Below, in pieces: positions 9,149-27,627 of a stretch of 27,627 bases of DNA. The DNA lies in the IMG/VR virus record IMGVR_UViG_2531839130_000010, one strand, 5' to 3'. Source of the stretch: a virus. Lineage: Duplodnaviria > Heunggongvirae > Uroviricota > Caudoviricetes. The stretch's first letter is position 1. Each line of letters opens with the position of its first letter. Both the position numbers and the translations under genes were made by a program. The notes below the pieces were generated by a model. That model saw only the letters and a program-made list of their open reading frames with translations, had not been told where the DNA came from and did not search any database.

Positions 9149-9182
9149 GGCTTTGCGTGAGTCTTATTTATTAAGGGTAACA

Positions 9183-9458: not shown

Positions 9459-9514
9459 TGTGCCAGCCACCACACACTGAACACCGATAGTGTGCTTGTG
9501 TCAGCCACGACACA
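9459..9514 (+). promoter_or_regulatory. Two TGT-N12-ACA dyads (Ogr/Delta-type activator boxes) upstream of the sid-like gene; candidate late promoter
   Basis: TGTgccagccaccacACA at 9459-9476 and TGTgtcagccacgacACA at 9497-9514, sharing a cagccac core; the sid-like ATG is at 9549. Confidence 0.4.
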
Positions 9515-9548
9515 ATTGACGTAACGAACCAACCCGACAGGAGAAGTC

Positions 9549-10840: not shown

Positions 10841-10845
10841 TATTA

Positions 10846-11118
10846 ATGGCACTTAAATGTCCGGAATGCGGTACAGTTGCACACGCCAGAACAGCAGCCT
10901 ATGAAGCTCCGTCAGTTAAACGCTCGTGGTATCAGTGCCAGAATCTGGAATGTTCCTGCACATTTACGGCACTGGAGAGTGTGGATAAGATAATCATGAA
11001 ACCCCGGCGCAATGAACAGGAACCAGACAAATCACAACCCCCGGTAAAACAACAGCAAACGCTCAATCGCTATGGCTCCGCGTCAAAACTGTCAAGCCGT
11101 CAGCAGATTCCTGTCTGA
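10846..11118 (+). CDS. Ogr/Delta-family zinc-finger late-gene transcriptional activator (90 aa from ATG 10846)
   Basis: MALKCPECGTVAHARTAAYEAPSVKRSWYQCQNLECSCTF has the C-x2-C ... C-x4-C spacing and HART motif of P2 Ogr / P4 Delta; AGGAG RBS 8 nt upstream. Track start 10837 is a GTG. Confidence 0.8.
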   Translation: MALKCPECGTVAHARTAAYEAPSVKRSWYQCQNLECSCTFTALESVDKIIMKPRRNEQEPDKSQPPVKQQQTLNRYGSASKLSSRQQIPV

Positions 11119-11141
11119 TTAGAAAAAAACGCCCACGTAAT

Positions 11142-11165
11142 CCCGGTCGAGTACCGGGATTTTTA
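11142..11165 (+). terminator. Rho-independent terminator after the delta gene
   Basis: Hairpin cccggt-cgagt-accggg followed by aTTTTT. Confidence 0.6.
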
Positions 11166-11512
11166 ACACCTTTTCCCTGGCTGGCCTGAGAGCGTATGAG
11201 TGCATGTCTATGGCGCATGAAAATGCATGAGTCTTATGCACCCTTTTTGAGGCGAAAACCTTTGTGTGGTGGTATCTGAGACGATTTATGGCATGCATGA
11301 AAACCAGTCTGTTAAGCGAAGCGGGCAGGCGTGCGGGGCTGCCCGCGTAAGGGCGTTGAATGGTATAACTATGGCACGGTTACCGCATGTTTTGAGCTGT
11401 AATCGAAGTTATGAAAATTACTATATAAAGCGGTCGCTGTTGTGGAGATACGATTGCGGGAAGTGATGGAAAGAGCTATAAAAAGTACAGAGGATAGTTT
11501 AATGAGGGTATT

Positions 11513-12790
11513 ATGAACCGTCAGCCGTTTACTTCAGCAGCACTTAAACGAAACTTAAGTGAAAGTGAGAAGGCTTATTATTTTAAAAAAAATAATGTTG
11601 CTGAGTTAGAATCATTAATTAGTGATGCCGTTTTAATTGCTAATGAGAATTTTCGCTCTGGTGTGAGTGTAAAGAAACTAAATATTAAGGGACGCTGCGT
11701 TTACACTGCTTCATGTTTGAAGGAAAAAATAATACTTAGACATTGCAATGCAAATTTAAAATGCCTTGAATCGCTTCGTCCCAAACAACGAAATACAATA
11801 ATTAGTGAGCTTAAAATTTATTTGGAAGAAGGTACTCCATTCAAAATATATCGTTTGGATATAAAGTCTTTCTTTGAATCAATTGATTTACCGCAGCTTT
11901 TTCAGCTCTTACATAACGAAACACGACTGTCTAGACATACAAAAAATTTGCTAGAATGGTATCTTAAATCGTGTGAAAGGCTTCACTCTTCGAAAGGATT
12001 ACCTAGAGGGTTAGAAATTAGTCCTATGTTATCAGAATTGTACTTGGCACAATTTGATAATAGTATTCATAGGCATCCAGAAGTATTTTATTATTCAAGA
12101 TTTGTAGATGATATGGTAATCGTTTCAAGTGGTTGTGAATGTGAAGCGTCCTTTATGGAATTTATACAAGATGTATTACCAAAGGGATTGGCTTTAAATA
12201 AAAATAAATTAAAAATATCTCCATGCATACCAAAGAGAAGTAAGGGTTTAAATAAACAGGATAAATTGCTTCATGAATTTGACTTTCTAGGGTACTCGTT
12301 TTCTATAATAGACACACCTTTGAGCAAAGATGGTGAGATTAATAGCTGTTACAGAAAGGTTGTTGTTAATTTATCTAAATCTCGCCTGAAGAAAATTAAA
12401 ACAAGAATAGCTAGGTCTTTCTACTCTTATCATATTAATGGTGATTTTAAACTATTGCTAGACAGGATTTCTTTTTTGACTAGTAACAGGGATTTAAATC
12501 GCAAAATAAAATCGTTAAGTTCTTTAGAAAAAAGCAAGATAAGTACAGGTATTTATTACAGTAATGCGAAGTTAGATGTTGACTCCATATCCCTAAAAAA
12601 ATTAGATGACTTTTTGCTATATTGTGTGCAATCTAATACTGGGCGTTTGAATAGTGTTGCAAAAAAACCTTTTAATTTGAAGCAAAAAAAAGAACTGCTA
12701 AGAAATAGTTTTAGAAAAGGCTTTGTGGATAGAGTATATAGAAAGTATAACTTTAAGCGCTATACTGAGATTACAAAAATATGGTTATAA
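11513..12790 (+). CDS. Reverse transcriptase, 425 aa (UG3-like; first gene of a DRT type 3-like pair)
   Basis: RT motifs read directly: YRLDIKSFFESI (motif 1/2), GLPRGLEISPMLSELYL (motif 4), RFVDDMVIV (catalytic motif 5), FLGYSF (motif 7). Strongly AT-rich versus the P4 backbone; stop overlaps next gene start. Confidence 0.8.
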   Translation: MNRQPFTSAALKRNLSESEKAYYFKKNNVAELESLISDAVLIANENFRSGVSVKKLNIKGRCVYTASCLKEKIILRHCNANLKCLESLRPKQRNTIISELKIYLEEGTPFKIYRLDIKSFFESIDLPQLFQLLHNETRLSRHTKNLLEWYLKSCERLHSSKGLPRGLEISPMLSELYLAQFDNSIHRHPEVFYYSRFVDDMVIVSSGCECEASFMEFIQDVLPKGLALNKNKLKISPCIPKRSKGLNKQDKLLHEFDFLGYSFSIIDTPLSKDGEINSCYRKVVVNLSKSRLKKIKTRIARSFYSYHINGDFKLLLDRISFLTSNRDLNRKIKSLSSLEKSKISTGIYYSNAKLDVDSISLKKLDDFLLYCVQSNTGRLNSVAKKPFNLKQKKELLRNSFRKGFVDRVYRKYNFKRYTEITKIWL

Positions 12791-14799
12791 AGAAAAACAT
12801 TAAACTTGATAAGAAAGATTATCTCAGGGCTTTACTATGTGATACACTGCCCGGTGATTGTCCAATTATTTTTTCAAATGATGGCTTATATATAAACTTA
12901 ACAGAATATGATAGAGTTTGTAATGATTTGTTACATTTTACTCCGGTTTCTTCTTTCTTAAAAAAAATAGTTAACCCTAATTTAGACTCTTCTATTAGTG
13001 TCGCAGATCGCCACCGAGAAAAGAAGAAACAAAGCTCCCCATTTGGCTATTGTATAGTAAAAGATGCCTTTAGCCAAAGACATCTTTCTTTAATTCACCC
13101 AAGATCTCAAATTAATTATTCGGAATTTTATAAAACATACTCATCCGTTATCACATTAAATACTTTAAAAAGTAATTTTTCTATTCGCTACCCACGTAAG
13201 GTCGCTAACTCTTTCTTTTTATATGAAAATAATGCTTTGGAAAAATATAAAGGGGAAGATATCGAAACAACAAAGGATGAGTTAATGAGGAAATATTCAT
13301 CCTCTTATTTTAGTTATGGCGGTTTCAACAGGATATATAAACTATTTCAAAGTAAGATGTTTATTGAGCTTGAGAAAAGATTCTCGGTGATGTGGATGTT
13401 AGATGTATCACATTGTTTTGATAGCATATATACGCATTCGGTTTCTTGGGCATTAAAAAATAAATCATATATAAAAAAACATGTTAAACACAGCAATCAA
13501 TTTGGACAAGAATTAGATACACTGATGCAACGTAGCAATAATAATGAAACAAATGGAATACCTATTGGTTCAGAGTTTAGCAGGGTTTTTGCAGAATTAA
13601 TATTTCAGCGAATTGATTGCAATATTGAGTCATGCCTTCTTAGTGAACATGGATGGGTTAATAATAAAGATTATGTTATATTGAGATATGTAGATGATTT
13701 TATTGTTTTTTGTAATGGTGAGTCAAGTGCCGAAGTTATTACAAAAATAATTAATGTGAAGTTAAATGAATATAATCTACAATTAAATGTAAACAAGCTT
13801 AAGAAGTATTCTAGGCCATTTTGCACTAGCAAGACAAGTTTGATTGTCAAAGTTAATGAATTAATTCGCAATTTAGAAATTAAACTGTATGAAAAACGTG
13901 ATAGTGGCTTTACTTTAAATAAAATAAGAAGTAAGCATGATTTAAAGATATATGTAATTAATCATGTCAAGTCTATATGCATTGAAAATCAAGTGTCTTA
14001 TTCTGATGTTTCATCATATATAATATCATCTCTTTCCAAAAGATTAATATCAATAATTGATATATTACGAGTTCAAGAAAATGAAGATGATGTAGATGTA
14101 AAAAAAAGGATTAAGGACTTAATTTTCACAATAACCGATATTATGTTGTTCTTTTTCAGTGTTAACCCAACTGTTTCATCATCTTATAAATTATCAAAGA
14201 CAATGGTTGTTGTTAATAACTATTTGAATGAAATATCTAGTGACTATAGTAGTATTTTTATGACTACGTTAGTGAATGCTGCGGAAAACATTAATTTTGG
14301 TGAGAATGATAATGGGCTGTTTATTGATGATTTCATTTCAATTGAAAAGGTTAATTTAATCTTGGCTGCTACTTTTTTTGGAGATAATTATCTTATAAGT
14401 GACAGTTTTTTTCATGGAGTTATACATAAAAAGAAATTGGACTACTTTACTATAATCTCACTGCTATTCTATTTTAGAAACAGAAGATCATTCCGAAAAT
14501 TGAAGTGTATAATAGAGGGTGAAATAAAGGAAATATTAAGTTCTAATATGGATTTGCTGCAATCATCGGAAAAGGCACATTTATTTTTGGATGTCATGTC
14601 ATGTCCATTTGTCTCAATAGAGACAAGGCGTTTTTTATATAGAAAATATCTCAAGAGCTATGAGCCAAAGCTGAACAGAAGTCATCTGGAGATTGAGAAT
14701 GATTTGCAATCTCTGCTTCAAACATATTGGTTTGTCAAGTGGGATGAGTTAGATATTGTGAAAATGATTGAGAAAAAAGAATTGAAAGAAAGCTATTAA
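12781..14799 (+). CDS. Reverse transcriptase, 672 aa (UG8-like; second gene of a DRT type 3-like pair)
   Basis: RT motifs: MLDVSHCFDSI (motif 2), GIPIGSEFSRVFAELIF (motif 4), RYVDDFIVF (catalytic motif 5), LQLNVNKLKKY (motif 6); long N- and C-terminal extensions; 10-bp overlap with the upstream RT gene. Confidence 0.8.
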   Translation: MVIKKNIKLDKKDYLRALLCDTLPGDCPIIFSNDGLYINLTEYDRVCNDLLHFTPVSSFLKKIVNPNLDSSISVADRHREKKKQSSPFGYCIVKDAFSQRHLSLIHPRSQINYSEFYKTYSSVITLNTLKSNFSIRYPRKVANSFFLYENNALEKYKGEDIETTKDELMRKYSSSYFSYGGFNRIYKLFQSKMFIELEKRFSVMWMLDVSHCFDSIYTHSVSWALKNKSYIKKHVKHSNQFGQELDTLMQRSNNNETNGIPIGSEFSRVFAELIFQRIDCNIESCLLSEHGWVNNKDYVILRYVDDFIVFCNGESSAEVITKIINVKLNEYNLQLNVNKLKKYSRPFCTSKTSLIVKVNELIRNLEIKLYEKRDSGFTLNKIRSKHDLKIYVINHVKSICIENQVSYSDVSSYIISSLSKRLISIIDILRVQENEDDVDVKKRIKDLIFTITDIMLFFFSVNPTVSSSYKLSKTMVVVNNYLNEISSDYSSIFMTTLVNAAENINFGENDNGLFIDDFISIEKVNLILAATFFGDNYLISDSFFHGVIHKKKLDYFTIISLLFYFRNRRSFRKLKCIIEGEIKEILSSNMDLLQSSEKAHLFLDVMSCPFVSIETRRFLYRKYLKSYEPKLNRSHLEIENDLQSLLQTYWFVKWDELDIVKMIEKKELKESY

Positions 14800-14972
14800 T
14801 TTGATAAATATGAGTCGTGGTCAGTTTCAAAATACTTACGTCATCGTCGTCGGTGTATTTTATATCGATTATGAAGACGATTTCGCTGGAACTGAAATCG
14901 GCTTGAATGCTTAAACTTAAGCTAAAAAAACAGTTTGAGACCAAAGCCTAAATTATTAGGCTTTGGATTTTC
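14800..14972 (+). ncRNA. Candidate structured non-coding RNA downstream of the RT pair, ending in a terminator hairpin
   Basis: No credible ORF; local self-complementarity (atcgtcgtc ... gaagacgat); ends with hairpin ccaaagcct-aaattatt-aggctttgg plus ATTTT at 14941-14971. Purely a candidate. Confidence 0.2.
14941..14971 (+). terminator. Rho-independent terminator downstream of the RT operon
   Basis: Perfect 9-bp stem ccaaagcct/aggctttgg, 8-nt loop, followed by aTTTT. Confidence 0.55.
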
Positions 14973-15191
14973 AGGTTCAGTTGAGAGTAATTGCTGTCTG
15001 TTTATTGCTTAACCAATACAGTTAGTGGTGCTTACACACCTGATGTTGAGAAACTGACCACACCAATACAACCTTTTGTTTGTCTTCAACTGTGTAGACT
15101 ACTAAACACGAATCAGCAGTTAGGGGCATGTATGGGGGCATTGGTTTTAATTTTTTATAAAATATCAATTTTTTCATATTGTTAAGTTATT

Positions 15192-15218
15192 GTTCGACTC
15201 CTATTATCGGCACCATCA
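15192..15218 (+). repeat. attR core of the P4-like element: second copy of the 27-bp tRNA-Thr 3'-end repeat
   Basis: Exact copy of 2302-2328; no tRNA body upstream of it. Confidence 0.8.
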
Positions 15219-15821
15219 AGAAAATCAATAACTTAGCTTAACTTCTCTAAGAAATTGTATCTTCTGTTATCACTTACAAACGCCTATACGTTGTTATGGG
15301 CTTTGGTAGTGTAACACGTATGGGCGAGTAGTTCCCAGGCTCAACCTCGTAACAAGTTCCTTTGAAGCTGGAAGACGTGCCACCGTCTCTAAACCTTCTA
15401 CCAAAACTCTTAGCAAGATGTTCCACACCTGGCGCGGTGTCCAATGATGCTACACGTCGTGAGACGTTGCAGAGGATAAACAGGCTAAATGATGGGAAGA
15501 GTTTTAAGTGCAATAGTGGATTAAAGCCCACCTCTTCAAAACCTAACTTGATCGGGAAAGAATCAAGCTCTAGCACGGTTTCGTCCACCGGAGTACAACG
15601 GGTGCCTGATAAGAGAAGAACTGCTAAGACTTCATAGCTTTTGTGAAAAAGCCCTTTTTAGTGGATACGCCTACGGCGCTTATTTTTTGGTATAACCATC
15701 AAAGGCGCTTTATGGCTCCTATTGTCTTGAAAATGTATCTTTACTTGTATTGTGTTTTATGCGTAGCCTTCCTGTGTAGTATGTAACTTGTTCATTTTCA
15801 TATGAATACAGAGGCAACACG

Positions 15822-15974
15822 ATGAAAAACATTGCAGCTATCAAACGTAATAACCGCAAGATTCACGCTCGTAAGTTCCTGTCTACGCCAGAAGGAAAAG
15901 CCTGGCTAGAGCGTAAACAGCGAGAGAACGAAGAAAGAAAACTCCTTAGTGAGTTGAAATGGCTTAAGGATTGA
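15822..15974 (+). CDS. Small basic hypothetical protein (50 aa; below ORF-track cutoff)
   Basis: Manual translation MKNIAAIKRNNRKIHARKFLSTPEGKAWLERKQRENEERKLLSELKWLKD; GAGG-like RBS about 9 nt upstream. Confidence 0.3.
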   Translation: MKNIAAIKRNNRKIHARKFLSTPEGKAWLERKQRENEERKLLSELKWLKD

Positions 15975-16539
15975 ACCACCAGTAGGCGCATAACACATCC
16001 AGCGATCAAAGATGTGTTTATGCACCTGATAGTGAAATTATTAAAGTCGTTTAGTTAACATCGCCATTGCTTGAGCAATAATTGCAACAGCGTCCATCTC
16101 TTCACTGGAAGCGATGCAAATGCGGTAACTAATAGCCACAACGAATACATCAATAACGAGAAAGTGAATAGTGTGAAGATGTTTTGAAAGTAAATGCATA
16201 ACTTCCTCCGGTTTTACGATAGGAAGATTAGAACATGCATTAAATGATGTTACAAGGGTGGTAATTTACCCTAATAGTCTACTATTCACCTCAATCTACG
16301 TCAACCAATATTTGATGTAGATTTAATTTTCTTTTAAAAACAATATGTTGCAATTTGTTGAATTTTGGGGTTAGGTTGTTTTTTGAACGTTTTCATCAAG
16401 TGTAAAGATACGTTTAGCCTTCATAGTGAGTTCAGTTACTGTCTTTTTCTCTGAAATCGGCGCAGACGTGATCAATGTTTAACGCGAAGATCAGCGGCGT
16501 CAGGTCCACGCAGCGACAATTCTCAAATATCAGGAGGCA

Positions 16540-17097
16540 TTACGCTTCCTGCTCTTTCTTGATACGTTGCACCGTCTGTGTGCTGACACTGAAATCTTTT
16601 GCTACGCTCCGAATTGATCCACCATTCGCGAGAGCGGCAACAATTCCCGCTCGATCAATTGCTTTTCCATTACCACGTTTTGCTATACGTCCAGCGGCCT
16701 TAGCTGCGGCGATCCCCTCACGCTGCCGCTCAAGCATCATTTCACGTTCCATTTGTGCCACTGCTGCAAGCACTGTGAGCATCATATTCCCTGCGGGAGA
16801 GTTCTTCCCTGTCTTAAAGTCTTCTTTATGGAAATGCACAGACACGCCGCGCTCTGTTAATTGCTCAACCGTTGCCAGAAGGTCGGCTGTATTACGACAA
16901 AGGCGATCAATACTATGGACGTGTAACACGTCACCCTCCCGCACATAGTTCATCATTGCCTCAAACTGTGGGCGCTGAGTGTTCTTGCCTGACGCTTTAT
17001 CTTCAAAGACTTTATCAAGAGTTACTCCAGCTAATTGACGGTCTGTGTTTTGTTGCACAGTCGATACCCTAATGTATCCAATATTAGCCATTTTCAT
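16540..17097 (-). CDS. Serine recombinase (resolvase / DNA invertase family), 185 aa
   Basis: N-terminal catalytic signature IGYIRVSTVQQNTDRQ (active-site Ser), resolvase core, C-terminal HTH GGSIRSVAKDFSVSTQTVQRIKK; AAGGA RBS. Confidence 0.85.
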   Translation of the reverse strand: MKMANIGYIRVSTVQQNTDRQLAGVTLDKVFEDKASGKNTQRPQFEAMMNYVREGDVLHVHSIDRLCRNTADLLATVEQLTERGVSVHFHKEDFKTGKNSPAGNMMLTVLAAVAQMEREMMLERQREGIAAAKAAGRIAKRGNGKAIDRAGIVAALANGGSIRSVAKDFSVSTQTVQRIKKEQEA

Positions 17098-17655
17098 TTT
17101 CCTTCTGTGTTGATTTGTGTGTAGTGATTATTGATCGTGTTGATTAGGTGTGTAAAGGACTTTTTTCACTACGAAATTCGAAGGTTTTTAGTGTGGTGAT
17201 TTAGCCTGCTTTATCACTACACGTCTTGCATGAGAATCATGTAGTTACATTTTGGTAAAATTAGCAAGCTATTAAATAGTGTGTTTATTTTGAAAAAATA
17301 ATTTTTTGTTGCATTAAAGGAAACTTGTTCGACAAATAATAGATTGATTTTTAATCAACAATTTCTGATAGTGCTCTGTAAGCCGTATTACACAAGGCTT
17401 TGCGAAAGTGATGTAAAAGTGAAGAAAGCTAACATTGCACTTTTTAAGCTACTTTTCATTGGATTTTTACGTAGGAATTACACAGGGATTAATCATCAAT
17501 TACATTGAATTTAAGCCTGTTTTAGATGTTTAATTTTGGTAGCAAGAAACACTTTTAGAAGATCATTGCACAGATGCTATGTGATGATTGGATGTAACGG
17601 TAGGTCACTGTGAGCTACCCCTATCAAGTCTGATACCCGATAAGTATAAATAACA

Positions 17656-17756
17656 CCTGGGAAATGAGTTCCGATCTATTTAGGAAATAACCGTGGAAGT
17701 GGTTTCCTACCTACCTAGGAAATGAGTTCCTATCACCTAGGAAATGATTTCCGACA
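17656..17756. repeat. Cluster of near-palindromic direct repeats CCT(A/G)GGAAATGA(G/T)TTCC (3 copies) plus a related dyad; candidate protein-binding sites
   Basis: Copies at 17656-17674, 17714-17734, 17736-17756; dyad taggaaa-N15-tttccta at 17681-17709. Core GGAAAT-N-ATTTCC is palindromic. Confidence 0.5.
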
Positions 17757-18147
17757 ATACTATAATTAAACTACAATTAAACTATATAATATAATTCTTT
17801 TTTATCTTTATAAGAATAATTATAGGGATACCCGTTAGGGAGTCTAACGACTATCCCTTAATCTATTGGCATTCGCCAGAACCTTGCACAAGTTAGAGTG
17901 TTAGTCGTTAGACTGCTTGTCATAACACATAGTTTTTGTTTGTTGATGTTAGTTAGTAGATCTATGTTCGCTAATGCCGCTCACAACGAATATGTAATCT
18001 ACTATGTGCAAATAGCCTACGGCTTGCGTAAGGCTAAATAGTCTTGCGCTGTGCGCTTCAATAGTTCCATTGATGAGGCTTATGATCTTACCCAGCAATA
18101 GTGGACACGCGGCTAAGTGAGTAAACTCTCAGTCAGAGGTGACTCAC

Positions 18148-18447
18148 ATGACAAAAACAGTATCAACCAGTAAAAAACCCCGTAAACAGCATTCGCCTGA
18201 ATTTCGCAGTGAAGCCCTGAAGCTTGCTGAACGCATCGGTGTTACTGCCGCAGCCCGTGAACTCAGCCTGTATGAATCACAACTCTACAACTGGCGCAGT
18301 AAACAGCAAAATCAGCAGACGTCTTCTGAACGTGAACTGGAGATGTCTACCGAGATTGCACGTCTCAAACGCCAGCTGGCAGAACGGGATGAAGAGCTGG
18401 CTATCCTCCAAAAGGCCGCGACATACTTCGCGAAGCGCCTGAAATGA
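18148..18447 (+). CDS. insE: IS3 transposase OrfA (HTH DNA-binding subunit)
   Basis: [28 protein letters not shown]... recognised as IS3 OrfA; ATG at 18148 with GAGGTG RBS (track start 18139 is a GTG). Confidence 0.9.
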
Positions 18448-19310
18448 AGTATGTCTTTATTGAAAAACATCAGGCTGAGTTCAGCATCAAAGCAATGTGC
18501 CGCGTGCTCCGGGTGGCCCGCAGCGGCTGGTATACGTGGTGTCAGCGGCGGACAAGGATAAGCACGCGTCAGCAGTTCCGCCAACACTGCGACAGCGTTG
18601 TCCTCGCGGCTTTTACCCGGTCAAAACAGCGTTACGGTGCCCCACGCCTGACGGATGAACTGCGTGCTCAGGGTTACCCCTTTAACGTAAAAACCGTGGC
18701 GGCAAGCCTGCGCCGTCAGGGACTGAGGGCAAAGGCCTCCCGGAAGTTCAGCCCGGTCAGCTACCGCGCACACGGCCTGCCTGTGTCAGAAAATCTGTTG
18801 GAGCAGGATTTTTACGCCAGTGGCCCGAACCAGAAGTGGGCAGGAGACATCACGTACTTACGTACAGATGAAGGCTGGCTGTATCTGGCAGTGGTCATTG
18901 ACCTGTGGTCACGTGCCGTTATTGGCTGGTCAATGTCGCCACGCATGACGGCGCAACTGGCCTGCGATGCCCTGCAGATGGCGCTGTGGCGGCGTAAGAG
19001 GCCCCGGAACGTTATCGTTCACACGGACCGTGGAGGCCAGTACTGTTCAGCAGATTATCAGGCGCAACTGAAGCGGCATAATCTGCGTGGAAGTATGAGC
19101 GCAAAAGGTTGCTGCTACGATAATGCCTGCGTGGAAAGCTTCTTTCATTCGCTGAAAGTGGAATGTATCCATGGAGAACACTTTATCAGCCGGGAAATAA
19201 TGCGGGCAACGGTGTTTAATTATATCGAATGTGATTACAATCGGTGGCGGCGGCACAGTTGGTGTGGCGGCCTCAGTCCGGAACAATTTGAAAACAAGAA
19301 CCTCGCTTAG
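18444..19310 (+). CDS. insF: IS3 transposase OrfB (DDE catalytic subunit)
   Basis: 288-aa IS3 OrfB with integrase-core DDE region (WAGDITYL ... HTDRGGQY ... [11 protein letters not shown]); overlaps OrfA as in IS3. Confidence 0.9.
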
Positions 19311-19875
19311 GCCTGTGTCCATATTACGTGGGTAGGATCATTACGCCAATCTAACGATCATCAATCTATTTAAGAGAAAATCTATTGTGCAATACTCTGA
19401 CGAGTGCAATAACCTTGTGTGCTACGCGTTAGCGATGTTAGCACATAGACACAGACAACAACCAACAACAAACAAAAAAGAAAGAATGGTTTTAGTAGTT
19501 GAAGGTTAAATAAGTTTCTACCGCTTAAATCAAGCCGTAGGCGAGCTAAACGTATATAAGGCAGGGAAACCTTAGCGGTAATAGATTAGCTCATTATAGA
19601 GCTTCTGAGGAGCTTTACAGGTATTTTATAAGGTGTCTGAAATTAGAGTTTATCTATCATCTCCTTTTCATATACCTAACAAATACAAAATAAGCCCCTT
19701 AAATAAACCTCTGGCGAGCTAAACTGTCATTACATAAGGGAATGTATTGTTTTTATCAAAACCTCGTTAGAACGCGTTTTAGAGAATAAGGAAGAATAGC
19801 ATCACACAGAAGAGCACGAATTGCTAAGCAAAATCATAACATACTGAAAAATGATCAATATTTTATGGGCGGGGG

Positions 19876-19904
19876 TTGACAAAAGCCTTTAGTTATGGTA
19901 AAGT
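19876..19904 (+). promoter_or_regulatory. Candidate sigma70 promoter with extended -10 (TTGACA-N17-TAAAGT, TG at -15/-14)
   Basis: TTGACA 19876-19881, 17-bp spacer, TGgTAAAGT 19896-19904; about 120 bp upstream of the first small gene. Confidence 0.4.
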
Positions 19905-20027
19905 AATATTAGGGACAGGAAAACATTCCTATCCTCTAAATAATTAAACCAATGCACCGCACTTTGAAGCCCAAGAGGCTTGCAAGGTGTCTTTTTCTTC
20001 TAACCAAATAGAATAGGAGGTTAATTA

Positions 20028-20210
20028 GTGAAGTATTTCACTTCTCAAGATGTAGTTGAAGCCTGGAAACGTGGTGAGATCAACCGCTTTAGGGTAAGAA
20101 TGAATAGGAACACAGCGCGACGCTGTGGTTATCCAGAGCGTGAAAAATGTTTTGACGATGCACTAAAAATTATTGATGAACTGCGTAAGGCAGGAGCAGA
20201 GAAAGAATAA
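20028..20210 (+). CDS. Small hypothetical protein (60 aa)
   Basis: ORF track; GTG start preceded by a strong AGGAGG RBS. Confidence 0.45.
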   Translation: MKYFTSQDVVEAWKRGEINRFRVRMNRNTARRCGYPEREKCFDDALKIIDELRKAGAEKE

Positions 20211-20233
20211 TAACAGGAGAAGGAGAAAACCAA

Positions 20234-20422
20234 ATGAATATTAATTTTGATTCTGCAACTTATAACGCGTTGTTAAATCGTGCAAAGGCAGAAGGGAAAT
20301 CAATTCCAAAACTTGTTAATGAATTACTAATTACAGTCCTTACAAAGGAGGAACTAAATGATCAAAAATATCAAAACAATTGCCGAAGCGAAAGCCAAAT
20401 GTCTAAATCAGAAAGATGGTAA
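20234..20422 (+). CDS. Small hypothetical protein (62 aa), possible RHH/CopG-like fold
   Basis: ORF track; GGAGAAGGAG RBS; 3' end overlaps next gene by about 65 nt, so true extent is uncertain. Confidence 0.35.
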   Translation: MNINFDSATYNALLNRAKAEGKSIPKLVNELLITVLTKEELNDQKYQNNCRSESQMSKSERW

Positions 20423-21026
20423 ACAAAAATATGTAGTCGTTGAGCAGTGGTTGAAGATGTTTAAAAAGTGGTTCTCACCGTCAGGTAATGAATACACCGC
20501 TACACTGCCAGCCGTTGAAATCTATAGCTATATAGCTGGATTCAATGAACAAGGGCAAGAATGTTACGCCACTCAAAAAACATTATCTAATATTGGAATG
20601 GTTAGTGATCGCCAGGTTCGCAATATTATAAATATGTTTGTTGATATGGGAGTTCTTTCTGTAGAGGCTCGGGACGGGCAAACATCACTCTATAAAGCAT
20701 TACCATTCACAGATGCACATATTACTCCCCCTGGAGAGTCATCACTACCTGATCCTTCTGAGAAAGAAGACGAATCTAATGAAATATTGAATGTTTCCGA
20801 AATCATCGTTGAAGAAGAAACACAAGAGCCAGAGTTCCCTGAGCGGCCCGAAATTTTTACTTGGCTTCTTTCCCTTGATAAGAAGAAACCACCGCACGAA
20901 GAAACAGAAGATTTTGTAAAACGAGCATTAGATTCAAAGAATATCTATCTTTGTGAAAATGATTTTGACTCTTTGATAATTGATCTCAAAAGTGAGAGCA
21001 CAATATATGATTCACTACCCTTCTAA
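20358..21026 (+). CDS. Hypothetical protein (222 aa) with winged-HTH-like N-terminal region and acidic C-terminus
   Basis: AAGGAGG RBS; segment ATQKTLSNIGMVSDRQVRNIINMFVDMGVLSVEARDGQTSLY resembles a wHTH; acidic EEETQEPEFPERPE stretch. Confidence 0.5.
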   Translation: MIKNIKTIAEAKAKCLNQKDGKQKYVVVEQWLKMFKKWFSPSGNEYTATLPAVEIYSYIAGFNEQGQECYATQKTLSNIGMVSDRQVRNIINMFVDMGVLSVEARDGQTSLYKALPFTDAHITPPGESSLPDPSEKEDESNEILNVSEIIVEEETQEPEFPERPEIFTWLLSLDKKKPPHEETEDFVKRALDSKNIYLCENDFDSLIIDLKSESTIYDSLPF

Positions 21027-21035
21027 GGAGAATAA

Positions 21036-21305
21036 ATGACTTATAACATCACTATAGGAAACAAAACTATTGAAATAACTGAAAGCGGATACAACATTTT
21101 AAAAGCTATTTTGGACATAGAGTTTTCACCACCGACAGTGGTTAGCTTTTGTAGTTTAGGCGGCTACAGCGCACAACACGTAAATCATTGGTTAAATCAT
21201 TTTACATCGTTCGGTGTGCTGGATTATGAAGGGATTAACAGCACTACATTTCGTCTTTTGAAATTAAACAAAGATTTTGAATTGTTTCTCACAAACAATC
21301 AATAA
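21036..21305 (+). CDS. Hypothetical protein (89 aa)
   Basis: ORF track; AAGGAG RBS. Confidence 0.45.
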   Translation: MTYNITIGNKTIEITESGYNILKAILDIEFSPPTVVSFCSLGGYSAQHVNHWLNHFTSFGVLDYEGINSTTFRLLKLNKDFELFLTNNQ

Positions 21306-21402
21306 CAACAGATCGGGCAATACATATGGCAAATGCATTTATGGCGATATTCATCGTAACAATGGCGTCCAGTTTTTATAATCCACATAAAAAGAGGGAA
21401 AA

Positions 21403-21786
21403 ATGGGAAGAAAGAAAAAGAACAACTTAAAACGTATTGAAAAAAACAGTAATTTCAATTCAAAAAGACAACGTCCACCGACACACACCAATAACGAAAT
21501 TCCAGGGGAAGAGATAATCTTTATTCTTGAAACAGAATCCCCTGAATTAAGTGATGAAGAATTAGAAATAATCCAATCAATGCCAGGCGTTTACTTTCGC
21601 CCAAGAACAAGAAAACAAACTATCATTTCTGATGGCACTCTGAAACGTTGGCAGCTTTTAGGGTTTAGCTCCTATCATCATTTTTTGGGATTTAACGCTT
21701 TCAATAATTGTGTAGGTGGTGCATCGGAAGTCGATCTGATGGCTCATTTAGAAGATACATTAGCTTCTAACAAACGTTCTAACTAA
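21403..21786 (+). CDS. Hypothetical protein (127 aa)
   Basis: ORF track; GAGGG RBS; basic N-terminus. Confidence 0.45.
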   Translation: MGRKKKNNLKRIEKNSNFNSKRQRPPTHTNNEIPGEEIIFILETESPELSDEELEIIQSMPGVYFRPRTRKQTIISDGTLKRWQLLGFSSYHHFLGFNAFNNCVGGASEVDLMAHLEDTLASNKRSN

Positions 21787-21801
21787 TAAAATGATGGGTG
21801 T

Positions 21802-22047
21802 ATGTATAAGCGCCCAATGAAAATATTCAAAAAAGGAAAAATAATGATTGGCTATATTCAAGAAACACAATTATTTCAGATGATCCTGTCTGATGCAAAA
21901 AACTATGCAGAGTTAATTCGGCTGGCAAAAGAAACAGAAGACTACGAAGCATTAGAGCGTTACCGTGATGAAGTGCTGACGCTCAAGACACCTTTTAACA
22001 TCGTATTGAATATGATTAATGATGCATTACAAGGAGAATACGCATAA
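21802..22047 (+). CDS. Hypothetical protein (81 aa or shorter)
   Basis: ORF track; alternative internal starts possible; stop overlaps next ATG. Confidence 0.4.
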   Translation: MYKRPMKIFKKGKIMIGYIQETQLFQMILSDAKNYAELIRLAKETEDYEALERYRDEVLTLKTPFNIVLNMINDALQGEYA

Positions 22048-22346
22048 TGGAAGAAGATATTAGCAATGCAATGGAACAACTTTTAGATCTGACTATCTCA
22101 CTACAAACAAGAATAAATCAAGCCTATTCAGATTTATGCGATTACACGCTCTCTCAATGCGTTATTAGCTTAATGAAGGTGAATGTAAGCCTTGACGATT
22201 TTATCTCTCTGGTGAGCGTATCAGAGGACGATGCAAAACAGTGTAATCAAATCATCACAGACATCGCCACCACGTTAAAGGTTGCAAGTGAAGAGATTCA
22301 GCAATTAGTAGATGATTTAGCAAAAAGTGCTATTTTCTCTAAATGA
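22047..22346 (+). CDS. Hypothetical protein (99 aa)
   Basis: ORF track; AAGGAGAA RBS; ATAATG overlap with the upstream gene. Confidence 0.45.
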   Translation: MEEDISNAMEQLLDLTISLQTRINQAYSDLCDYTLSQCVISLMKVNVSLDDFISLVSVSEDDAKQCNQIITDIATTLKVASEEIQQLVDDLAKSAIFSK

Positions 22347-22618
22347 TAATGAAAATTATTTGCATTTATAATGATTTTGTTATATAATAATTTTAGGGGT
22401 AGATAAAAAGATTTTAGTTGGTGTTAATCCTTCTACTGTCATAAATCCCTGCATATGGAAGGTGATAGCCTCAAAGGTTGAGTGGCATTAACCTCTAACA
22501 AATATTACCTTCCATCTCTCAAGAAGTTTTAGAATAATCATAACTCCCTCTTTGATTGTTGATTGTTTCTACGTTGTGTTGATGAATGTTGTTAGGCATT
22601 GTGCTTAATTTTGATAAA

Positions 22619-22661
22619 AGCGGGTAGGTGTTATCTCCTTGCCCTTCCCGCTCTTATTTTT
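22619..22661 (+). terminator. Terminator-like hairpin with T-tract
   Basis: agcggg ... cccgct stem (large 22-nt loop) followed by cttattttt; weaker than the other terminators. Confidence 0.3.
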
Positions 22662-23288
22662 CATCTATGCTTATCCTAAAGCTCCTTATTTTGTCAGAAA
22701 ACATTAAAGAGCCTTACACTGATAGTTATATTTTATAACTATTTACTAACATCATTAAACTATTATTTAATGACAGAAGTTAGTAACAGAATAATCTATT
22801 AAGTTGTTGTCAAAAACAATCATCTGCATAGCGTTAGCCGCAAGCAGAGAGAGTTTAGCTAAGAATGGTGCAATAAACTTTGGAAATATTGATAGCAAAA
22901 CGGGTTTTATAGAATGCGGATCTATAAGCTTTGGTTGTAAAAACGATTTTCTGAAACGGTAGATTACTGTTGGTGTAGTTAATCATTATTAAAAATTTAA
23001 TCTGTGAGTAGATTGGAATAGTGATTCCTTAAAATCTGACTGGTGCATCCACACCATGAAAGATAGCGGTTGGCCACCGCGCCCCGAATAGATATTCCTG
23101 ATTGATTCCGCATGTTTTCCTAAGAGCATGTTTTCAGGAGTATCTATTCACCCTTTAAGCATATCATCAAGTATATTTAAAAAGTGTATTTGCTGATATG
23201 TTTAATCCTCTTATAGTTTAACTTATCAATTATGTAATTGCCCGCACGTTAAAGCCCCTTTGCTGGTCAGAATTAACCTCTTACGGCA

Positions 23289-23528
23289 TTGGGGCTTTTT
23301 ATTTGTCTGGCACTAACAGGAACATTATTTATGAAACAAGAAATGATTATCAGCAAAGACGGGGAAACGATGATTGTTAGTGATGAAAACCTCATTAAGG
23401 TTGCCGCACTGTTGGGAGTTACTCCCGAAAGTCTTCGTTCTACCACTGCTCAATTATTTAAATCGGCTGATGCGGTTAGTCTTGCTGATGCCCTTAAATC
23501 TAAAATTAAACAACTGAAAGGAAAATAA
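23289..23528 (+). CDS. Hypothetical phage protein (79 aa; may start at internal Met near 23331)
   Basis: ORF track; first of a co-oriented phage-like gene set. Confidence 0.4.
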   Translation: MGLFICLALTGTLFMKQEMIISKDGETMIVSDENLIKVAALLGVTPESLRSTTAQLFKSADAVSLADALKSKIKQLKGK

Positions 23529-23532
23529 TCTT

Positions 23533-23916
23533 ATGGCTAACCCATATGGAAAATTAAAAGCAGTGAATGCGGATAACTCCCGTTCACGCTGTAAGGTAGT
23601 AGCTTACGCTGCTGATCCAGTGCTGCAAGATCGCCTCGTCAAACTGGCTTCACCTCTCACTGACGATCTTATTGTCGGGGCTTTGCTGAAAGCCGATGGC
23701 ACCAAAGCAACAACCGCATCTGATATTGCTCACGTAGTAGTTGAACCGGCTTATGAAGGACAGGAAAGCGTAGTGGTTGCACATCCTACTTTCGTTATTC
23801 TGGCTGAAGATGGGATTGAATTTAACAGCATGGAAAAGGCAAGTGTTATTGCAAAACTGCAATCTCTCGGCTTTGTAATTGCTGGTTATGAAGAACTTGC
23901 GATCCCTACGACTTAA
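23533..23916 (+). CDS. Phage structural-module protein (127 aa), function unknown
   Basis: ORF track; AAGGA RBS; tight spacing with neighbours. Confidence 0.45.
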   Translation: MANPYGKLKAVNADNSRSRCKVVAYAADPVLQDRLVKLASPLTDDLIVGALLKADGTKATTASDIAHVVVEPAYEGQESVVVAHPTFVILAEDGIEFNSMEKASVIAKLQSLGFVIAGYEELAIPTT

Positions 23917-23930
23917 CAAGGAAAATAATA

Positions 23931-24962
23931 ATGAATGATTTATCAACATATTTTGGCGTTAATACTGCGGTAGTAACTCCATTTGCTTATGAGAATGCAC
24001 TTAATACCCTGATTACTAATCTCGATCTGTTCGATGTGCAATATCATACAGAAAACAGCATTCTTCTTACCGACCTGATTGATCAGTTTGTGCAGGTAGC
24101 TGGGGAAACCTCGCCTTACGCTCAAAGCGACTGGAACGCCTCTAAACGTCAGGAATGGTCAAACAAACTTTTCCAGATGAAACACGTCGGCAGTATTAAC
24201 GCTGTTACTTCTCGTGACCTGGAACAATACAGCCGCCAATATCCAAACCGTTCTGATGCTATGCTGGTAGCGGTTAATGATTTCTCTGAGGCTCATTACC
24301 GTTCACACGCAAACCGTGTTGAAGTGGATCTGATTACCGCGCTGCTGGGCCTGAAAGTTGAATCTGAATATGCCGGACAAGGTGATCTCGACTTCCTCGA
24401 CGGTCAGGCTAAAACCACGGTACCCGCTATCGACTTTGCATCGACTACTGTTAACCCGTTCCTTGCTATTCGTAAAGCGGTGCGCTTACAGAGTGAAAAG
24501 CTGGGGTCTGGTCTTGCTGCAAAGCGAACTGGTGTAATTATCTTTGCTGCTGGCACTGCTGCTGATGGTTTGTCATCTAACCCGCTGATCAGTGACATGG
24601 TGAAATATGCAGGCGATGCGAGTGCTACGGCCCTGTTTACCCGTATGGTTGATTCTAACCCAGCCTATGACTCTTTCCAGATTGGTGGGATCACTGTTAT
24701 TGATGTGTCAATGTTTCCTGAGATTGTTGCTCACATCGGAGAGAACGGTTTCGCAATTGTTCCGGTAATGGATAAAGCGGCACAGTGTTACCAGCTTCAT
24801 AGCGGCGTTGGTGTGCGTCATGCTGAGTTAGGTCAAGATGCCGTGTTGCATCACCAATATCTAATCAAGGATGAATTCCAATTCCCATCTGTGGTTACTG
24901 AGACATCTTATCTGCCAGTAAACAACATTCCGCAAGCTATCATCTTCGGATCTGCTGCGTAA
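23931..24962 (+). CDS. Phage structural protein (343 aa); major capsid or major tail protein candidate
   Basis: ORF track; size and position before the tape-measure-like gene; no diagnostic motif, call by context only. Confidence 0.45.
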   Translation: MNDLSTYFGVNTAVVTPFAYENALNTLITNLDLFDVQYHTENSILLTDLIDQFVQVAGETSPYAQSDWNASKRQEWSNKLFQMKHVGSINAVTSRDLEQYSRQYPNRSDAMLVAVNDFSEAHYRSHANRVEVDLITALLGLKVESEYAGQGDLDFLDGQAKTTVPAIDFASTTVNPFLAIRKAVRLQSEKLGSGLAAKRTGVIIFAAGTAADGLSSNPLISDMVKYAGDASATALFTRMVDSNPAYDSFQIGGITVIDVSMFPEIVAHIGENGFAIVPVMDKAAQCYQLHSGVGVRHAELGQDAVLHHQYLIKDEFQFPSVVTETSYLPVNNIPQAIIFGSAA

Positions 24963-25113
24963 TAAAGCGTTAATAGACGATTCCCCATCGGGGCAATAAG
25001 GGTAAAGGGATTAACTAACCTGTAGGCGCAAATACAGTAACGAATCTCTTTGCCCTTTTTGTTTTTCTACTGTCTACAAACCCAAATAAAAATATATATG
25101 TGAGAGAAAACCA

Positions 25114-25311
25114 ATGAATACAGAAAACCCACAATCCTTTATTCTTAAGGCTGTAAAAGAACTGGCAGCTATTAGCGAGGAATCAGTTATAAACACATCG
25201 GCGCTTTGCCGCCTTTTAGAAATTGATGCAAATAATGTGCGCCAGCGTGTCTTTCAGACTGGGTGCAGCACTTTCGAAGCAATTCAATACTATTGCTCTA
25301 AAAAACAATAA
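25114..25311 (+). CDS. Small hypothetical protein (65 aa), possible tail assembly chaperone by position
   Basis: ORF track; weak RBS. Confidence 0.3.
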   Translation: MNTENPQSFILKAVKELAAISEESVINTSALCRLLEIDANNVRQRVFQTGCSTFEAIQYYCSKKQ

Positions 25312-25345
25312 TAAACAACAATCATAATACAGGGAAACAATTAGC

Positions 25346-26764
25346 ATGTTAGAACTTAACGTCAGCCGCTTATCAAACGTTGTCACCTTCCAGGTTGATC
25401 GACCATCATTAGAGAAAGCAAAAGCAGAAGTAGAAAAACTTCGTAAACAAATGGCGGCGGTGAAAGATATAGAATTGCGTGTTAAGACACATAAACAATC
25501 AACTTCTAAAGCAAAAAAAGACGTAGACGATATTGCTAAAAAGCAAGCACAGGCAGATAAAGCCAATGCTAAAGCACAATTAGCCGCTCAACGTGTAGTT
25601 GCAAGAGAACAAAAAGCCCTGGCAGCACGCAAAGAGAAGGCAGACTTAAAACTGTTAGACGTTGGATCAAGCATTAGTGCATTGCACCGCCTTTCTGTAG
25701 CGGAACAATATAAAGCTATTGCACAGGCTAGAGAAATTGCCCTCCAATATGAAAGAGGAGCTATTAGTCTGGCACGTATGAATAGCCAAATGAAACGCCT
25801 ACAACAGCAACAACGTAAGATTAATGGCAATCGTAACGCTCACGCTAAAGCCTATGCACCTGTTAAGGGTAGCGGGAGTATTGGCGGCGGTGCTGCGGCT
25901 GTTATGCTGGGTGGCTTAGGCGCTGGCGCTACGTATATGGCTATGAGCAAAGCCTCTGAATTTGTTACTAACAGCTTTGCGAATGCTGAAACGCTGGGTG
26001 AATTGTATAGCCGTGCGAAGCTGGGCGGTGTAGACGTTAACCAGATGAACAATATTGAGCAATGGGCCTACAAAAACGGCGTTGATTCAATGATGGGGGA
26101 TCAAGGTAAACGTAAGTATCTCGATCAGATGAAAGATGTGCGTGAGCGTGCAACCAAAAGCTATGATGAGGCTGAATATGTAGTCGATAAAAAAACAGGC
26201 AAAGGTGAATGGAAGGGCGGCGATAGCGGCATCAATACTTTAATGAATGAAGGATTCTTAACTAAAAAGGATCTAAAAGACTTTGCTGATAATCCGGCTG
26301 GTCTGGTTAGTAAAGCAGTTCAGGGAATGGTGAAGAAAGGCTATTCAGATGCACAAATCGGTAGTCGTCTGGAAGATCTGGCTGATGATTTGATGCTCAC
26401 CTCTAAATACTGGACACGCTCCGCTAAAGAAGTGGAACAATCAGCACGAGAACAACGAGAATCAGGGCGCTGGGTAACACAGGCACAACAGGAAAGCGTT
26501 ATTAAATTCCGTGAACTGAATAATGCACTTAGTGGGCTTTCTGACTCACAAGGGATCGCCTTTGTTGATGGCTTTATGAAATCTCTTGATCCGAAAGTGA
26601 TTGAAGAGTTTAAAAAGAGCATGGTTGCAATGCTGCCAATGTTTACCAAATTAGGCGAGGCTATCGGCGGATTGGTTAACGCCGTAATGAAAACAATCAA
26701 CTGGCTGATGAAAAACGACGAGAAGACGGATGATCCTACCCACGTAATATGGACACAGGCCTAA
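25346..26764 (+). pseudogene. Tape-measure-like phage protein gene, truncated by IS3 insertion at 26730/26731
   Basis: Lys/Ala-rich coiled-coil N-terminus followed by Gly-rich hydrophobic segment GSGSIGGGAAAVMLGGLGAGATYMAMS; last 11 codons and the stop are IS3 terminal-repeat sequence. Confidence 0.5.
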
Positions 26765-27627
26765 GCGAGGTTCTTGTTTTCAAATTGTTCCGGACTGAGG
26801 CCGCCACACCAACTGTGCCGCCGCCACCGATTGTAATCACATTCGATATAATTAAACACCGTTGCCCGCATTATTTCCCGGCTGATAAAGTGTTCTCCAT
26901 GGATACATTCCACTTTCAGCGAATGAAAGAAGCTTTCCACGCAGGCATTATCGTAGCAGCAACCTTTTGCGCTCATACTTCCACGCAGATTATGCCGCTT
27001 CAGTTGCGCCTGATAATCTGCTGAACAGTACTGGCCTCCACGGTCCGTGTGAACGATAACGTTCCGGGGCCTCTTACGCCGCCACAGCGCCATCTGCAGG
27101 GCATCGCAGGCCAGTTGCGCCGTCATGCGTGGCGACATTGACCAGCCAATAACGGCACGTGACCACAGGTCAATGACCACTGCCAGATACAGCCAGCCTT
27201 CATCTGTACGTAAGTACGTGATGTCTCCTGCCCACTTCTGGTTCGGGCCACTGGCGTAAAAATCCTGCTCCAACAGATTTTCTGACACAGGCAGGCCGTG
27301 TGCGCGGTAGCTGACCGGGCTGAACTTCCGGGAGGCCTTTGCCCTCAGTCCCTGACGGCGCAGGCTTGCCGCCACGGTTTTTACGTTAAAGGGGTAACCC
27401 TGAGCACGCAGTTCATCCGTCAGGCGTGGGGCACCGTAACGCTGTTTTGACCGGGTAAAAGCCGCGAGGACAACGCTGTCGCAGTGTTGGCGGAACTGCT
27501 GACGCGTGCTTATCCTTGTCCGCCGCTGACACCACGTATACCAGCCGCTGCGGGCCACCCGGAGCACGCGGCACATTGCTTTGATGCTGAACTCAGCCTG
27601 ATGTTTTTCAATAAAGACATACTTCAT
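26731..27627 (-). mobile_element. Second IS3 copy, inverted relative to the first, truncated by the window end
   Basis: Starts with the IS3 terminal repeat TGATCCTACCCACGTAATATGGACACAGG; OrfB is 288/288 aa identical to the copy at 18444-19310. Confidence 0.9.
26761..27627 (-). CDS. insF: IS3 transposase OrfB (second copy)
   Basis: Identical 288-aa translation to the first copy; start codon is the last 3 bases of the window. Confidence 0.9.

Follow-up and report, generated by a model that had tools for sequence, protein, structure and literature searches.

The window (the whole stretch of 27,627 nucleotides that was analysed) carries two copies of IS3 in inverted orientation on either side of a phage-like segment. 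The features of the locus are the following.

18080–18082, no strand: left TTA target-site duplication of IS3 copy 1; the empty site has a single TTA
18083–19340, plus strand: IS3 copy 1, complete, 1258 bp, with TG...CA ends and 28 of 39 terminal positions matching
18148–18447, plus strand: orfA of copy 1, 99 aa, HTH_Tnp_1 domain (PF01527, 5e-10; NF033516 model positions 1–87)
18411–18414, plus strand: A-AAG, putative -1 frameshift site joining orfA and orfB; in-silico fusion gives an open 387-aa OrfAB
18444–19310, plus strand: orfB of copy 1, 288 aa, DDE/rve catalytic domain (PF00665, 5e-28; NF033516 positions 90–369)
19341–19343, no strand: right TTA target-site duplication of copy 1 (tta/IS3/tta)
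19341–26730, plus strand: bracketed segment, 7,390 bp, native core of a ~13-kb thrW-integrated phage-like element, collinear with IS-free islands
20358–21026, plus strand: HTH, replication-initiator-like gene (PF13730, 5.5e-5, under the Pfam cut-off; phrog_270, 3.6e-6)
23931–24962, plus strand: divergent major capsid protein of the lambda gpE family, 343 aa (relatives with PF03864; phrog_29, 5.5e-5)
25346–26764, plus strand: tape-measure-like gene, truncated by IS3 copy 2 (phrog_16051, 3e-31)
26731–27627, minus strand: IS3 copy 2, right end and whole orfB, 897 of 1258 nt in the window, seen as an inverted repeat of copy 1; complete in assemblies L003 and L002

At the level of its structure, copy 1 is a standard member of the IS3 family: it measures ~1.26 kb, has TG/CA ends (TGATCTTACCC at the start and GGGTAGGATCA at the finish) and bears imperfect terminal inverted repeats (IRL at ~18083–18121 and IRR at ~19302–19340), in which 28/39 positions pair. 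The two overlapping reading frames, in phases 0 and -1, are predicted to fuse into OrfAB through the A-AAG at 18411–18414, which we take to be the IS3 slippery site. OrfB is a retroviral-integrase-type (rve) DDE transposase that scores 339 bits against NF033516 (cut-off 160) and matches rve_2, rve_3 and HTH_21 besides PF00665. The length of OrfAB, 387 aa, accords with the 1163-nt joined coding sequence annotated by PGAP in L002, whose IS3 copy is identical to copy 1 and is named 'IS3-like element IS3 family transposase, programmed frameshift'. The OrfA, OrfB and OrfAB reading frames are all intact. The 3-bp target duplication of the family is present at copy 1 (TTA/TTA) and absent from copy 2 (GGA vs TTC), because the latter lies at the junction of a 15,430-bp deletion, as described below.

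Copy 1 lies in non-coding, AT-rich DNA (GC 0.33–0.41) between a DNA-invertase gene (16540–17097, minus strand) and a 60-aa open reading frame (20028–20210). An exact 77-mer made of the left flank, one TTA and the right flank was found in two IS-free genomes, GPEC874 (L006) and YZ3E2001 (L001). This empty site with its single TTA proves that copy 1 is a simple IS3 insertion with its own, private TTA/TTA duplication, as had been proposed from the window alone for an insertion into AT-rich intergenic DNA. The copy-1 junction was found in none of 5426 complete E. coli genomes.

The two copies share an inverted repeat of 898 nt that is 100% complementary (18444–19341 vs 26730–27627); 897 nt of it belong to IS3 and the one remaining flanking base pairs by chance. 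The orfB copies (18444–19310, plus strand; 26761–27627, minus strand) are identical at the DNA level, and the window ends exactly at the start codon of orfB of copy 2. As the window stops inside copy 2, its far flank was read from the draft assembly GCA_000356665.2 (L003, contig AQER01000004.1), which matches window positions 15346–27627 with 0 mismatches over 12,282 nt, and from a sister genome. The preliminary description had named divergence of copy 2 past the window as the observation that would speak against an identical inverted pair; in L003, copy 2 has all 1258 bp and does not differ from copy 1. The identity and inverted orientation seen over the visible 897 nt therefore extend over the whole element, and the two 1258-bp repeats, 100% identical, are separated by 7,390 bp. 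The L003 draft underlies part of the case for the stated orientation and for the perfect identity: short-read assembly may collapse repeats to one consensus, and short reads do not suffice to orient a segment between 1.26-kb inverted repeats. This caveat is offset by the complete genome GPEC60-12-649, in which copy 2 is identical to copy 1 of the window, and by the TTA/TTA pairing, which fits the given orientation.

Copy 2 had been expected to carry a target duplication of its own, to be sought at its far flank. This is not the case: in both L003 and L002 it is embedded as gacgga/IS3(-)/ttccgg, with GGA on one side and TTC on the other. In the intact relative L005, the two flanks are located at positions 2458 and 17889, with unchanged relative orientation and 15,430 bp between them. 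The sequence comparison hence shows that copy 2 marks a 15,430-bp deletion rather than a simple insertion, as the flanks of an IS-associated deletion junction lack a duplication and are non-adjacent but collinear in IS-free relatives. Codon 461 of the tape-measure-like gene and the first 43 nt of ecpB now lie on either side of copy 2. The DNA lost between them comprises the 3' end of the tape-measure-like gene, a Dit-like tail gene, the island integrase gene and attR, a LysR fragment, paoDCBA, yagU, ykgJ, ecpEDC and most of ecpB. Both copy-2 junctions are present in exactly one of the 5426 complete genomes, GPEC60-12-649, in which IS3 also abuts ecpA/ecpR. As an IS1 replaces window positions 17328–22193 in that genome, the copy-1 site included, it cannot date copy 1.

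The DNA between the two IS3 copies had been described as phage-like, and its gene content bears this out: it encodes the tape-measure-like protein (phrog_16051, 3e-31), a capsid protein of the gpE family and the replication-initiator-like HTH protein. PF03864, the domain of the phage major capsid protein E family, is found in relatives of the capsid protein at 42–49% identity, which bear the names 'major capsid protein' or 'major capsid protein E'; a tblastn search of 50,697 phage records with the protein itself gave no hit, and no PDB sequence matched it significantly. Native sequence accounts for 1385 of the 1842 nt of the tape-measure-like gene (up to 26730), and the right end of IS3 supplies the final 11 codons and the stop codon of the truncated frame; the intact protein in L006 has 613 aa (3.4e-34). 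At the DNA level, the segment matched the phage database over only 2–4% of its length, in unrelated jumbo phages. ARAGORN and Rfam searches of the window returned nothing, and the thrW pieces that it contains are 3' fragments only, of 49 nt and 24 nt. No relevant account of a named thrW satellite that has a capsid gene emerged from a search of the literature.

The intact island of GPEC874 measures 12,982 bp and lies between 27-nt thrW-derived repeats. At least partial matches to this island family were found in 762 of the 5426 complete E. coli genomes, and 133 of these 762 cover at least 80% of it. The bracketed segment is collinear with the IS-free islands of GPEC874, O104:H4 strains and others, and in many IS-free genomes it adjoins the same left flank without interruption and with unchanged orientation. 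Judged from these alignments, the 7.4-kb segment keeps its ancestral position and orientation.

Taken together, these results favour, with a probability of about 0.88, two separate and ordinary events in which IS3 acted on a decaying phage-like island at thrW. In one event, a minus-strand IS3, the present copy 2, would have joined codon 461 of the tape-measure-like gene to ecpB with the loss of 15,430 bp. This may have occurred by one of two routes: (i) an adjacent deletion made by an IS3, or (ii) recombination between two IS3 copies lying in direct orientation in the two genes, leaving a single hybrid copy. Either route would account for the missing target duplication. Among the complete genomes we found no intermediate of the deletion, in which one of the two genes would hold an IS3, flanked by a duplicated GGA in the tape-measure-like gene or by a duplicated TTC in ecpB, while the other side was still whole. 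In the other event, probably the later one, copy-out-paste-in transposition would have placed an identical plus-strand IS3 between the invertase and replication-initiator-like genes, with a normal 3-bp TTA duplication in the AT-rich intergenic region. The donor was presumably copy 2, or else an identical IS3 elsewhere in the genome. Copy 2 is common to a second lineage, in which the copy-1 site is deleted. The head-to-head arrangement of the two IS3 copies is a by-product of these events.

We asked whether the arrangement is nevertheless active, the 7.4-kb core flipping at an appreciable rate by means of the inverted IS3 copies. Long identical inverted repeats of this kind (1258 bp) are valid substrates for RecA-dependent inversion. 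With 1258 bp of homology at 100% identity, inverted and 7,390 bp apart, the locus has the long inverted repeats of an IS-bounded invertible segment, and RecA-dependent inversion of the core is possible on the sequence. A large inversion between inversely oriented IS3 elements of E. coli K-12 1485IN was reportedly described by Komoda, Enomoto and Tominaga in 1991 (Genetics 129:639), as their title states. However, no inverted isomer was observed: the only contig that spans both IS3 copies, that of the L003 draft, has the ancestral orientation, with the TTA/TTA pairing around copy 1 intact, and the contig of the sister assembly L004 ends in IS3 on both sides of the segment and is thus uninformative. 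Neither the inverted isomer nor the double-IS3 arrangement is present among the 5426 complete E. coli genomes, none of which has copy 1. Both isomers would have the same four IS/flank junction sequences, and public short-read assemblies therefore cannot address inversion. In addition, the breaks would fall inside the IS, so that no gene is made or broken and no selectable switch is evident. We therefore regard appreciable flipping as unlikely. The broader proposal of a functional IS3 pair, in which either the capsid/tape-measure core flips measurably or the 9.9-kb IS3-core-IS3 block transposes, appears more doubtful still; if true, this compound element could carry phage structural genes to new replicons.

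The preliminary description had also likened the locus to a composite transposon. The geometry stands, as two identical IS3 copies with intact transposase genes flank the segment and the pair terminates on each outer side in an IS3 left end, the two being inverted relative to each other. The mobile unit that this geometry suggests does not. First, the outer ends share no common target duplication, TTA being found on the left and TTC on the right, and copy 1 has a TTA/TTA duplication private to itself. Second, IS-free relatives keep the segment beside the same left flank, in the same orientation and inside the thrW element; a segment that has kept its ancestral position and direction was not brought in as part of a composite transposon. 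Third, the unit was found in no other genomic context, with 0/5426 complete genomes carrying the copy-1 junction. In PLSDB the IS3-segment-IS3 unit was not found, and the one true plasmid with a related sequence, NZ_CP126938.1, carries that island entire, including an integrase of its own, and its IS is a different one of 1310 bp. Finally, the junction promoter of IS3-family copy-out-paste-in transposition is made from a right end and a left end, and a junction between two left ends would lack it. On these grounds we reject a working compound transposon, arrived or movable as one unit, as highly improbable.

An equally small chance is left to an assembly artefact, by which one copy, or the perfect identity of the two, would result from repeat collapse or a misjoin in a short-read draft. 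GCA_000356665.2 is indeed a draft, and in L004 the contig stops within IS3 at either side of the segment. However, all four junctions are unique sequences, those of copy 1 bear a matching duplication, both copy-2 junctions occur independently in the complete genome GPEC60-12-649 with a copy equal to copy 1 of the window, and both inner junctions with IS3 are independently seen at the contig ends of L004. The least probable origin, intramolecular replicative transposition of copy 2 to give copy 1, would yield two identical inverted copies around the segment, as seen, but it would invert the DNA between them and split the duplication across both ends, and it is rejected, unless the assembly orientation is wrong, by the ancestral orientation of the segment and by the empty-site comparison, copy 1 having a direct TTA on both sides.

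The two-event reading describes ordinary genome wear by the common IS3 of E. coli, a process already known, and not a new mobile unit. The locus is a worked example of IS3 eroding an integrated element, with little import beyond bookkeeping. Copy 1 splits the intergenic control region of the island. The event at copy 2 removed the island integrase and attR, so that the remnant is locked in place. Lost with them were paoABCD and ecpB-E; as the latter genes serve in assembling the E. coli common pilus, the lineage should be unable to make this pilus, a prediction from gene content. For annotation, copy 2 is to be corrected from an insertion to a deletion scar, and the 'composite transposon' geometry is not to be read as a mobile unit.

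Inverted IS arms around a passenger segment are best known from compound transposons such as Tn10 with IS10 and Tn5 with IS50, which move as units, make one duplication at their outer ends and carry foreign passengers. The locus described here shares the inverted IS pair, but its passenger is native DNA, each IS3 has its own history and the outer flanks are unequal; moreover, IS3 transposes by copy-out-paste-in rather than cut-and-paste. As in E. coli K-12 1485IN, the inverted IS3 copies offer portable homology for inversion; however, inversion was reportedly observed there, over an interval that the title calls 'large', whereas the interval here is 7.4 kb and no inverted isomer was observed. 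Copies of IS without target duplications at deletion end-points, arising by IS recombination or adjacent deletion, are on record from the Lenski long-term lines (Ngan et al. 2024, PMC11708052). Copy 2 resembles these copies in its mismatched 3-bp flanks, 15.4 kb apart and collinear in intact relatives; it differs in belonging to a natural isolate lineage (two draft assemblies and one complete chicken isolate) and, no intermediate having been found, may have arisen in one step or in two. From IS3 of E. coli itself the element shows no difference of substance, apart from copy 2 having no duplication at its deletion junction: it has the same 1258 bp, the TG...CA ends, the orfA/orfB pair giving a 387-aa OrfAB, the rve (DDE) transposase and, at copy 1, the 3-bp duplication.

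The two IS3 copies represent two ordinary IS3 events in a thrW island that is undergoing decay. Scanned for repeats, the window gave a single long inverted repeat, 18444-19341 against 26730-27627, of 898 nt and 100% complementary; 897 nt of it belong to IS3 and the remaining flanking base is a chance pairing. Together with the exact ends and the intact orfA and orfB genes, this bears out the preliminary description of two identical, inverted IS3 copies, which are placed as follows:

18080-18082 and 19341-19343: tta duplications of copy 1, one per side
18083-19340, plus strand: IS3 copy 1, 1258 bp, TGATCTTACCC...GGGTAGGATCA by sequence reading
18148-18447, plus strand: OrfA of copy 1 (HTH_Tnp_1 match)
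18444-19310, plus strand: OrfB of copy 1 (rve, rve_2, rve_3 and HTH_21 matches)
26731 to the final window base, minus strand: IS3 copy 2, starting at the IS3 right end

The final window base is the first base of the copy 2 orfB start codon. The terminal inverted repeats of IS3 match at 28 of 39 positions. The NCBIfam model NF033516 ('IS3 family transposase', cut-off 160 bits) gave 339 bits, OrfA corresponding to model positions 1-87 and OrfB to 90-369. In silico, a -1 shift at A-AAG (18411-18414) yields an open 387-aa OrfAB, a length that agrees with the 1163-nt joined CDS assigned by PGAP to an identical IS3 copy in another genome. As judged from these matches, the coding content of copy 1 is that of an intact IS3.

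That copy 1 is a simple insertion with a 3-bp duplication into AT-rich intergenic DNA, as first proposed, was confirmed by the empty site with a single TTA: a 77-mer in which a single TTA follows 40 nt of the left flank and precedes the right flank is present exactly in two IS-free islands, those of GPEC874 and YZ3E2001. Window 17000-26730 is matched by dozens of genomes, O104:H4 outbreak strains included, in two abutting pieces with the IS alone skipped. Copy 1 lies in non-coding, AT-rich DNA (GC 0.33-0.41) and may split an origin or control region of the island. Among 5426 complete E. coli genomes, none has its junction. Window 17655-17756, ~330 bp left of the insertion point, contains three iteron-like direct repeats of 22 bp (ACCTGGGAAATGAGTTCCGATC and variants). 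The insertion point is also flanked by a 22-nt imperfect inverted repeat (17933-17954 / 19457-19478), whose arms are separated by 241 bp when the island lacks the IS.

An exact-protein look-up with the truncated tape-measure fusion ORF retrieved two public contigs. The first, a 383-kb contig of GCA_000356665.2 (L003), equals window 15346-27627 (12,282 nt, zero mismatches) and holds both IS3 copies complete and identical across all 1258 bp; copy 2 does not diverge beyond the window end. L003 very probably represents the source of the window or a clone-mate of it. Both ends of the second contig (L004) lie in IS3, and this contig is uninformative on segment orientation. Inspection of the far flank of copy 2 in L003 revealed no 3-bp target duplication, IS3(-) being preceded by gacgga and followed by ttccgg. 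In an intact relative, YZ3E2001 (L005), the two flanks share one orientation and are separated by 15,430 bp. On the left, the 1842-nt tape-measure-like gene is broken after nt 1385, and at the right break the first 43 nt of ecpB remain and nothing more. Missing are the remainder of the tape-measure-like gene, a Dit-like gene, the integrase together with attR, a LysR fragment, paoDCBA, yagU, ykgJ, ecpE, ecpD, ecpC and nearly the whole of ecpB. An IS lacking a duplication between collinear distant flanks is a recognised mark of direct-copy recombination or IS-adjacent deletion (PMC11708052). These features indicate that copy 2 is a deletion junction, which would have arisen either by recombination between two directly oriented IS copies or by IS-adjacent deletion; no intermediate separating the two was found among complete E. 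coli genomes. The new and useful result is this 15.4-kb IS3-associated deletion, which immobilised the island and removed pao and most ecp pilus genes.

Both copy 2 junctions are shared by exactly one complete genome, that of the chicken isolate GPEC60-12-649, whose copy 2 is identical to copy 1 of the window. In this genome a 768-bp IS1 (L002 14043-14810) replaces 4,866 bp equivalent to window 17328-22193; because the replacement took out the copy 1 site, GPEC60-12-649 cannot date copy 1. On this comparison the IS1 replacement is another IS-associated loss from the 13-kb island, independent of the first. Past the window end (L003 12644-13331; L002 20606-21293), ecpR-ecpA run into the left end of copy 2; ecpA and ecpR survive, and the genes for the chaperone, usher and adhesin of the pilus are lost. 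Because copy 2 shares its direction of transcription with ecpR-ecpA, the ecp promoter could conceivably drive read-through into the transposase genes of IS3.

The window belongs to the thrW region of an E. coli chromosome, a tandem array of integrated elements:

1-2328: end portion of a third integrated element, with a VbhA-family antitoxin (PGAP)
215-1105, minus strand: hypothetical protein of the third element, 296 aa
1115-2218, minus strand: tyrosine integrase of the third element
2277-2325: thrW 3' fragment, last 49 nt
2302-2328 and 15192-15218: perfect 27-bp thrW 3'-end repeat bounding the P4-like satellite
2329-15218: P4-like satellite, between the thrW fragments
2421-3680: satellite integrase
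6476-9148: satellite TOPRIM/DUF927 primase
11513-14799: satellite Drt3a/Drt3b (DRT3a/b) defence reverse transcriptases (PGAP names in GPEC60-12-649)
15192-15215: thrW 3' fragment, last 24 nt
16540-17097, minus strand: Hin/Gin-type DNA invertase (phrog_125, 7e-62; PF00239, 1e-38)

No complete tRNA lies within the window; the 2277-2325 fragment is labelled 'tRNA-Ser' in some PGAP records. The satellite also encodes two psu-like genes and one ogr/delta gene, whereas the equivalent satellite of GPEC874 carries retron St85 in place of DRT3a/b and sits on the opposite side of the 13-kb island. With an element end at 1-2328 beside the satellite and the island, there are therefore three tandem elements at thrW.

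The island, ~13 kb in its intact form, occupies the window from 15192 onward, and the 7.4-kb segment between the IS3 copies is its own core. It is intact in GPEC874 (L006 6001-18982), where it spans 12,982 bp from thrW to a tyrosine integrase at its far end, between 27-nt thrW-derived repeats that are 93% alike. Island genes encode the DNA invertase listed above, an HTH/replication-initiator-like protein, a 343-aa protein whose relatives (42-49% identity) carry PF03864 (lambda gpE capsid family), a tape-measure-like protein (613 aa when intact; phrog_16051, 3e-34) and, in the intact island, a Dit-like tail protein (PF21821, 1e-27). Given these capsid-family, tape-measure-like and Dit-like genes, the original term 'phage-like' is fair. 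Neither a terminase nor a portal gene was recognised in the 13-kb island, and no homologue of the capsid gene was detectable in cultured phages (50,697-record collection). The island has matches in 762 of the 5426 complete genomes, at least 80% of it being covered in 133 of those; its size is conserved, and more distant variants (77-88% identity) are of about equal length. Its content suggests a phage-satellite-like element, fitted to no named family. The DNA invertase gene lies close to the left IS3, on its outer side; a search of the island for paired inverted recombination sites gave nothing convincing.

With 1.26 kb of perfect homology in inverted orientation, the pair is a substrate for RecA-dependent inversion, and a 1991 paper by Komoda et al., going by its title, reportedly describes an inversion in E. 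coli K-12 between IS3 elements of opposite orientation. The four junctions (left flank-IRL, IRR-segment left end, segment right end-IRR and IRL-ecpB, IRL and IRR being the IS left and right ends) do not differ between the two isomers, since the crossover falls inside the IS. The isomers are therefore indistinguishable by short-read assemblies or junction searches, and the orientation of a draft assembly depends on its long-range linking data. The segment has the ancestral orientation in the window, with TTA paired with TTA around copy 1; L003, the sole contig across both copies and a draft oriented by long-range linking, agrees. No gene would be created or disrupted if the segment inverted, and such an inversion, for which the pair has a real potential, would be of little consequence.

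A compound transposon arriving as a unit is expected to carry a passenger of foreign origin and to be bounded on the outside by a single duplication. This reading was rejected: the passenger is the island core, with the same left flank and orientation in IS-free relatives, copy 1 has a private duplication, and the outer flanks of the pair are unequal (TTA vs TTC). The IS3-segment-IS3 unit was found nowhere else in the same 5426 genomes. Thus, of the earlier interpretation, the IS3 identity and the copy 1 insertion stand and the composite-transposon-like unit, given its native context and unequal flanks, does not. Intramolecular replicative transposition, which inverts the segment and splits the duplication, was rejected as the origin of the pair since neither an inverted segment nor a split duplication is seen.

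One true plasmid, the conjugative IncFIB/IncFIC APEC IncF plasmid NZ_CP126938.1, bears a relative of the segment at 95% identity, within a complete 13-kb island variant (26734-50161) that starts from a thrW-like att sequence and lies beside sopAB. Three identical IS3-family elements of 1310 bp, in direct orientation, interrupt this variant, and an IS3-family element different from copy 1 lies in the equivalent intergenic region, about 140 bp off the copy 1 point. The plasmid island is whole and has its own integrase, and the 1310-bp IS that struck it three times is a different element, without similarity to IS3.
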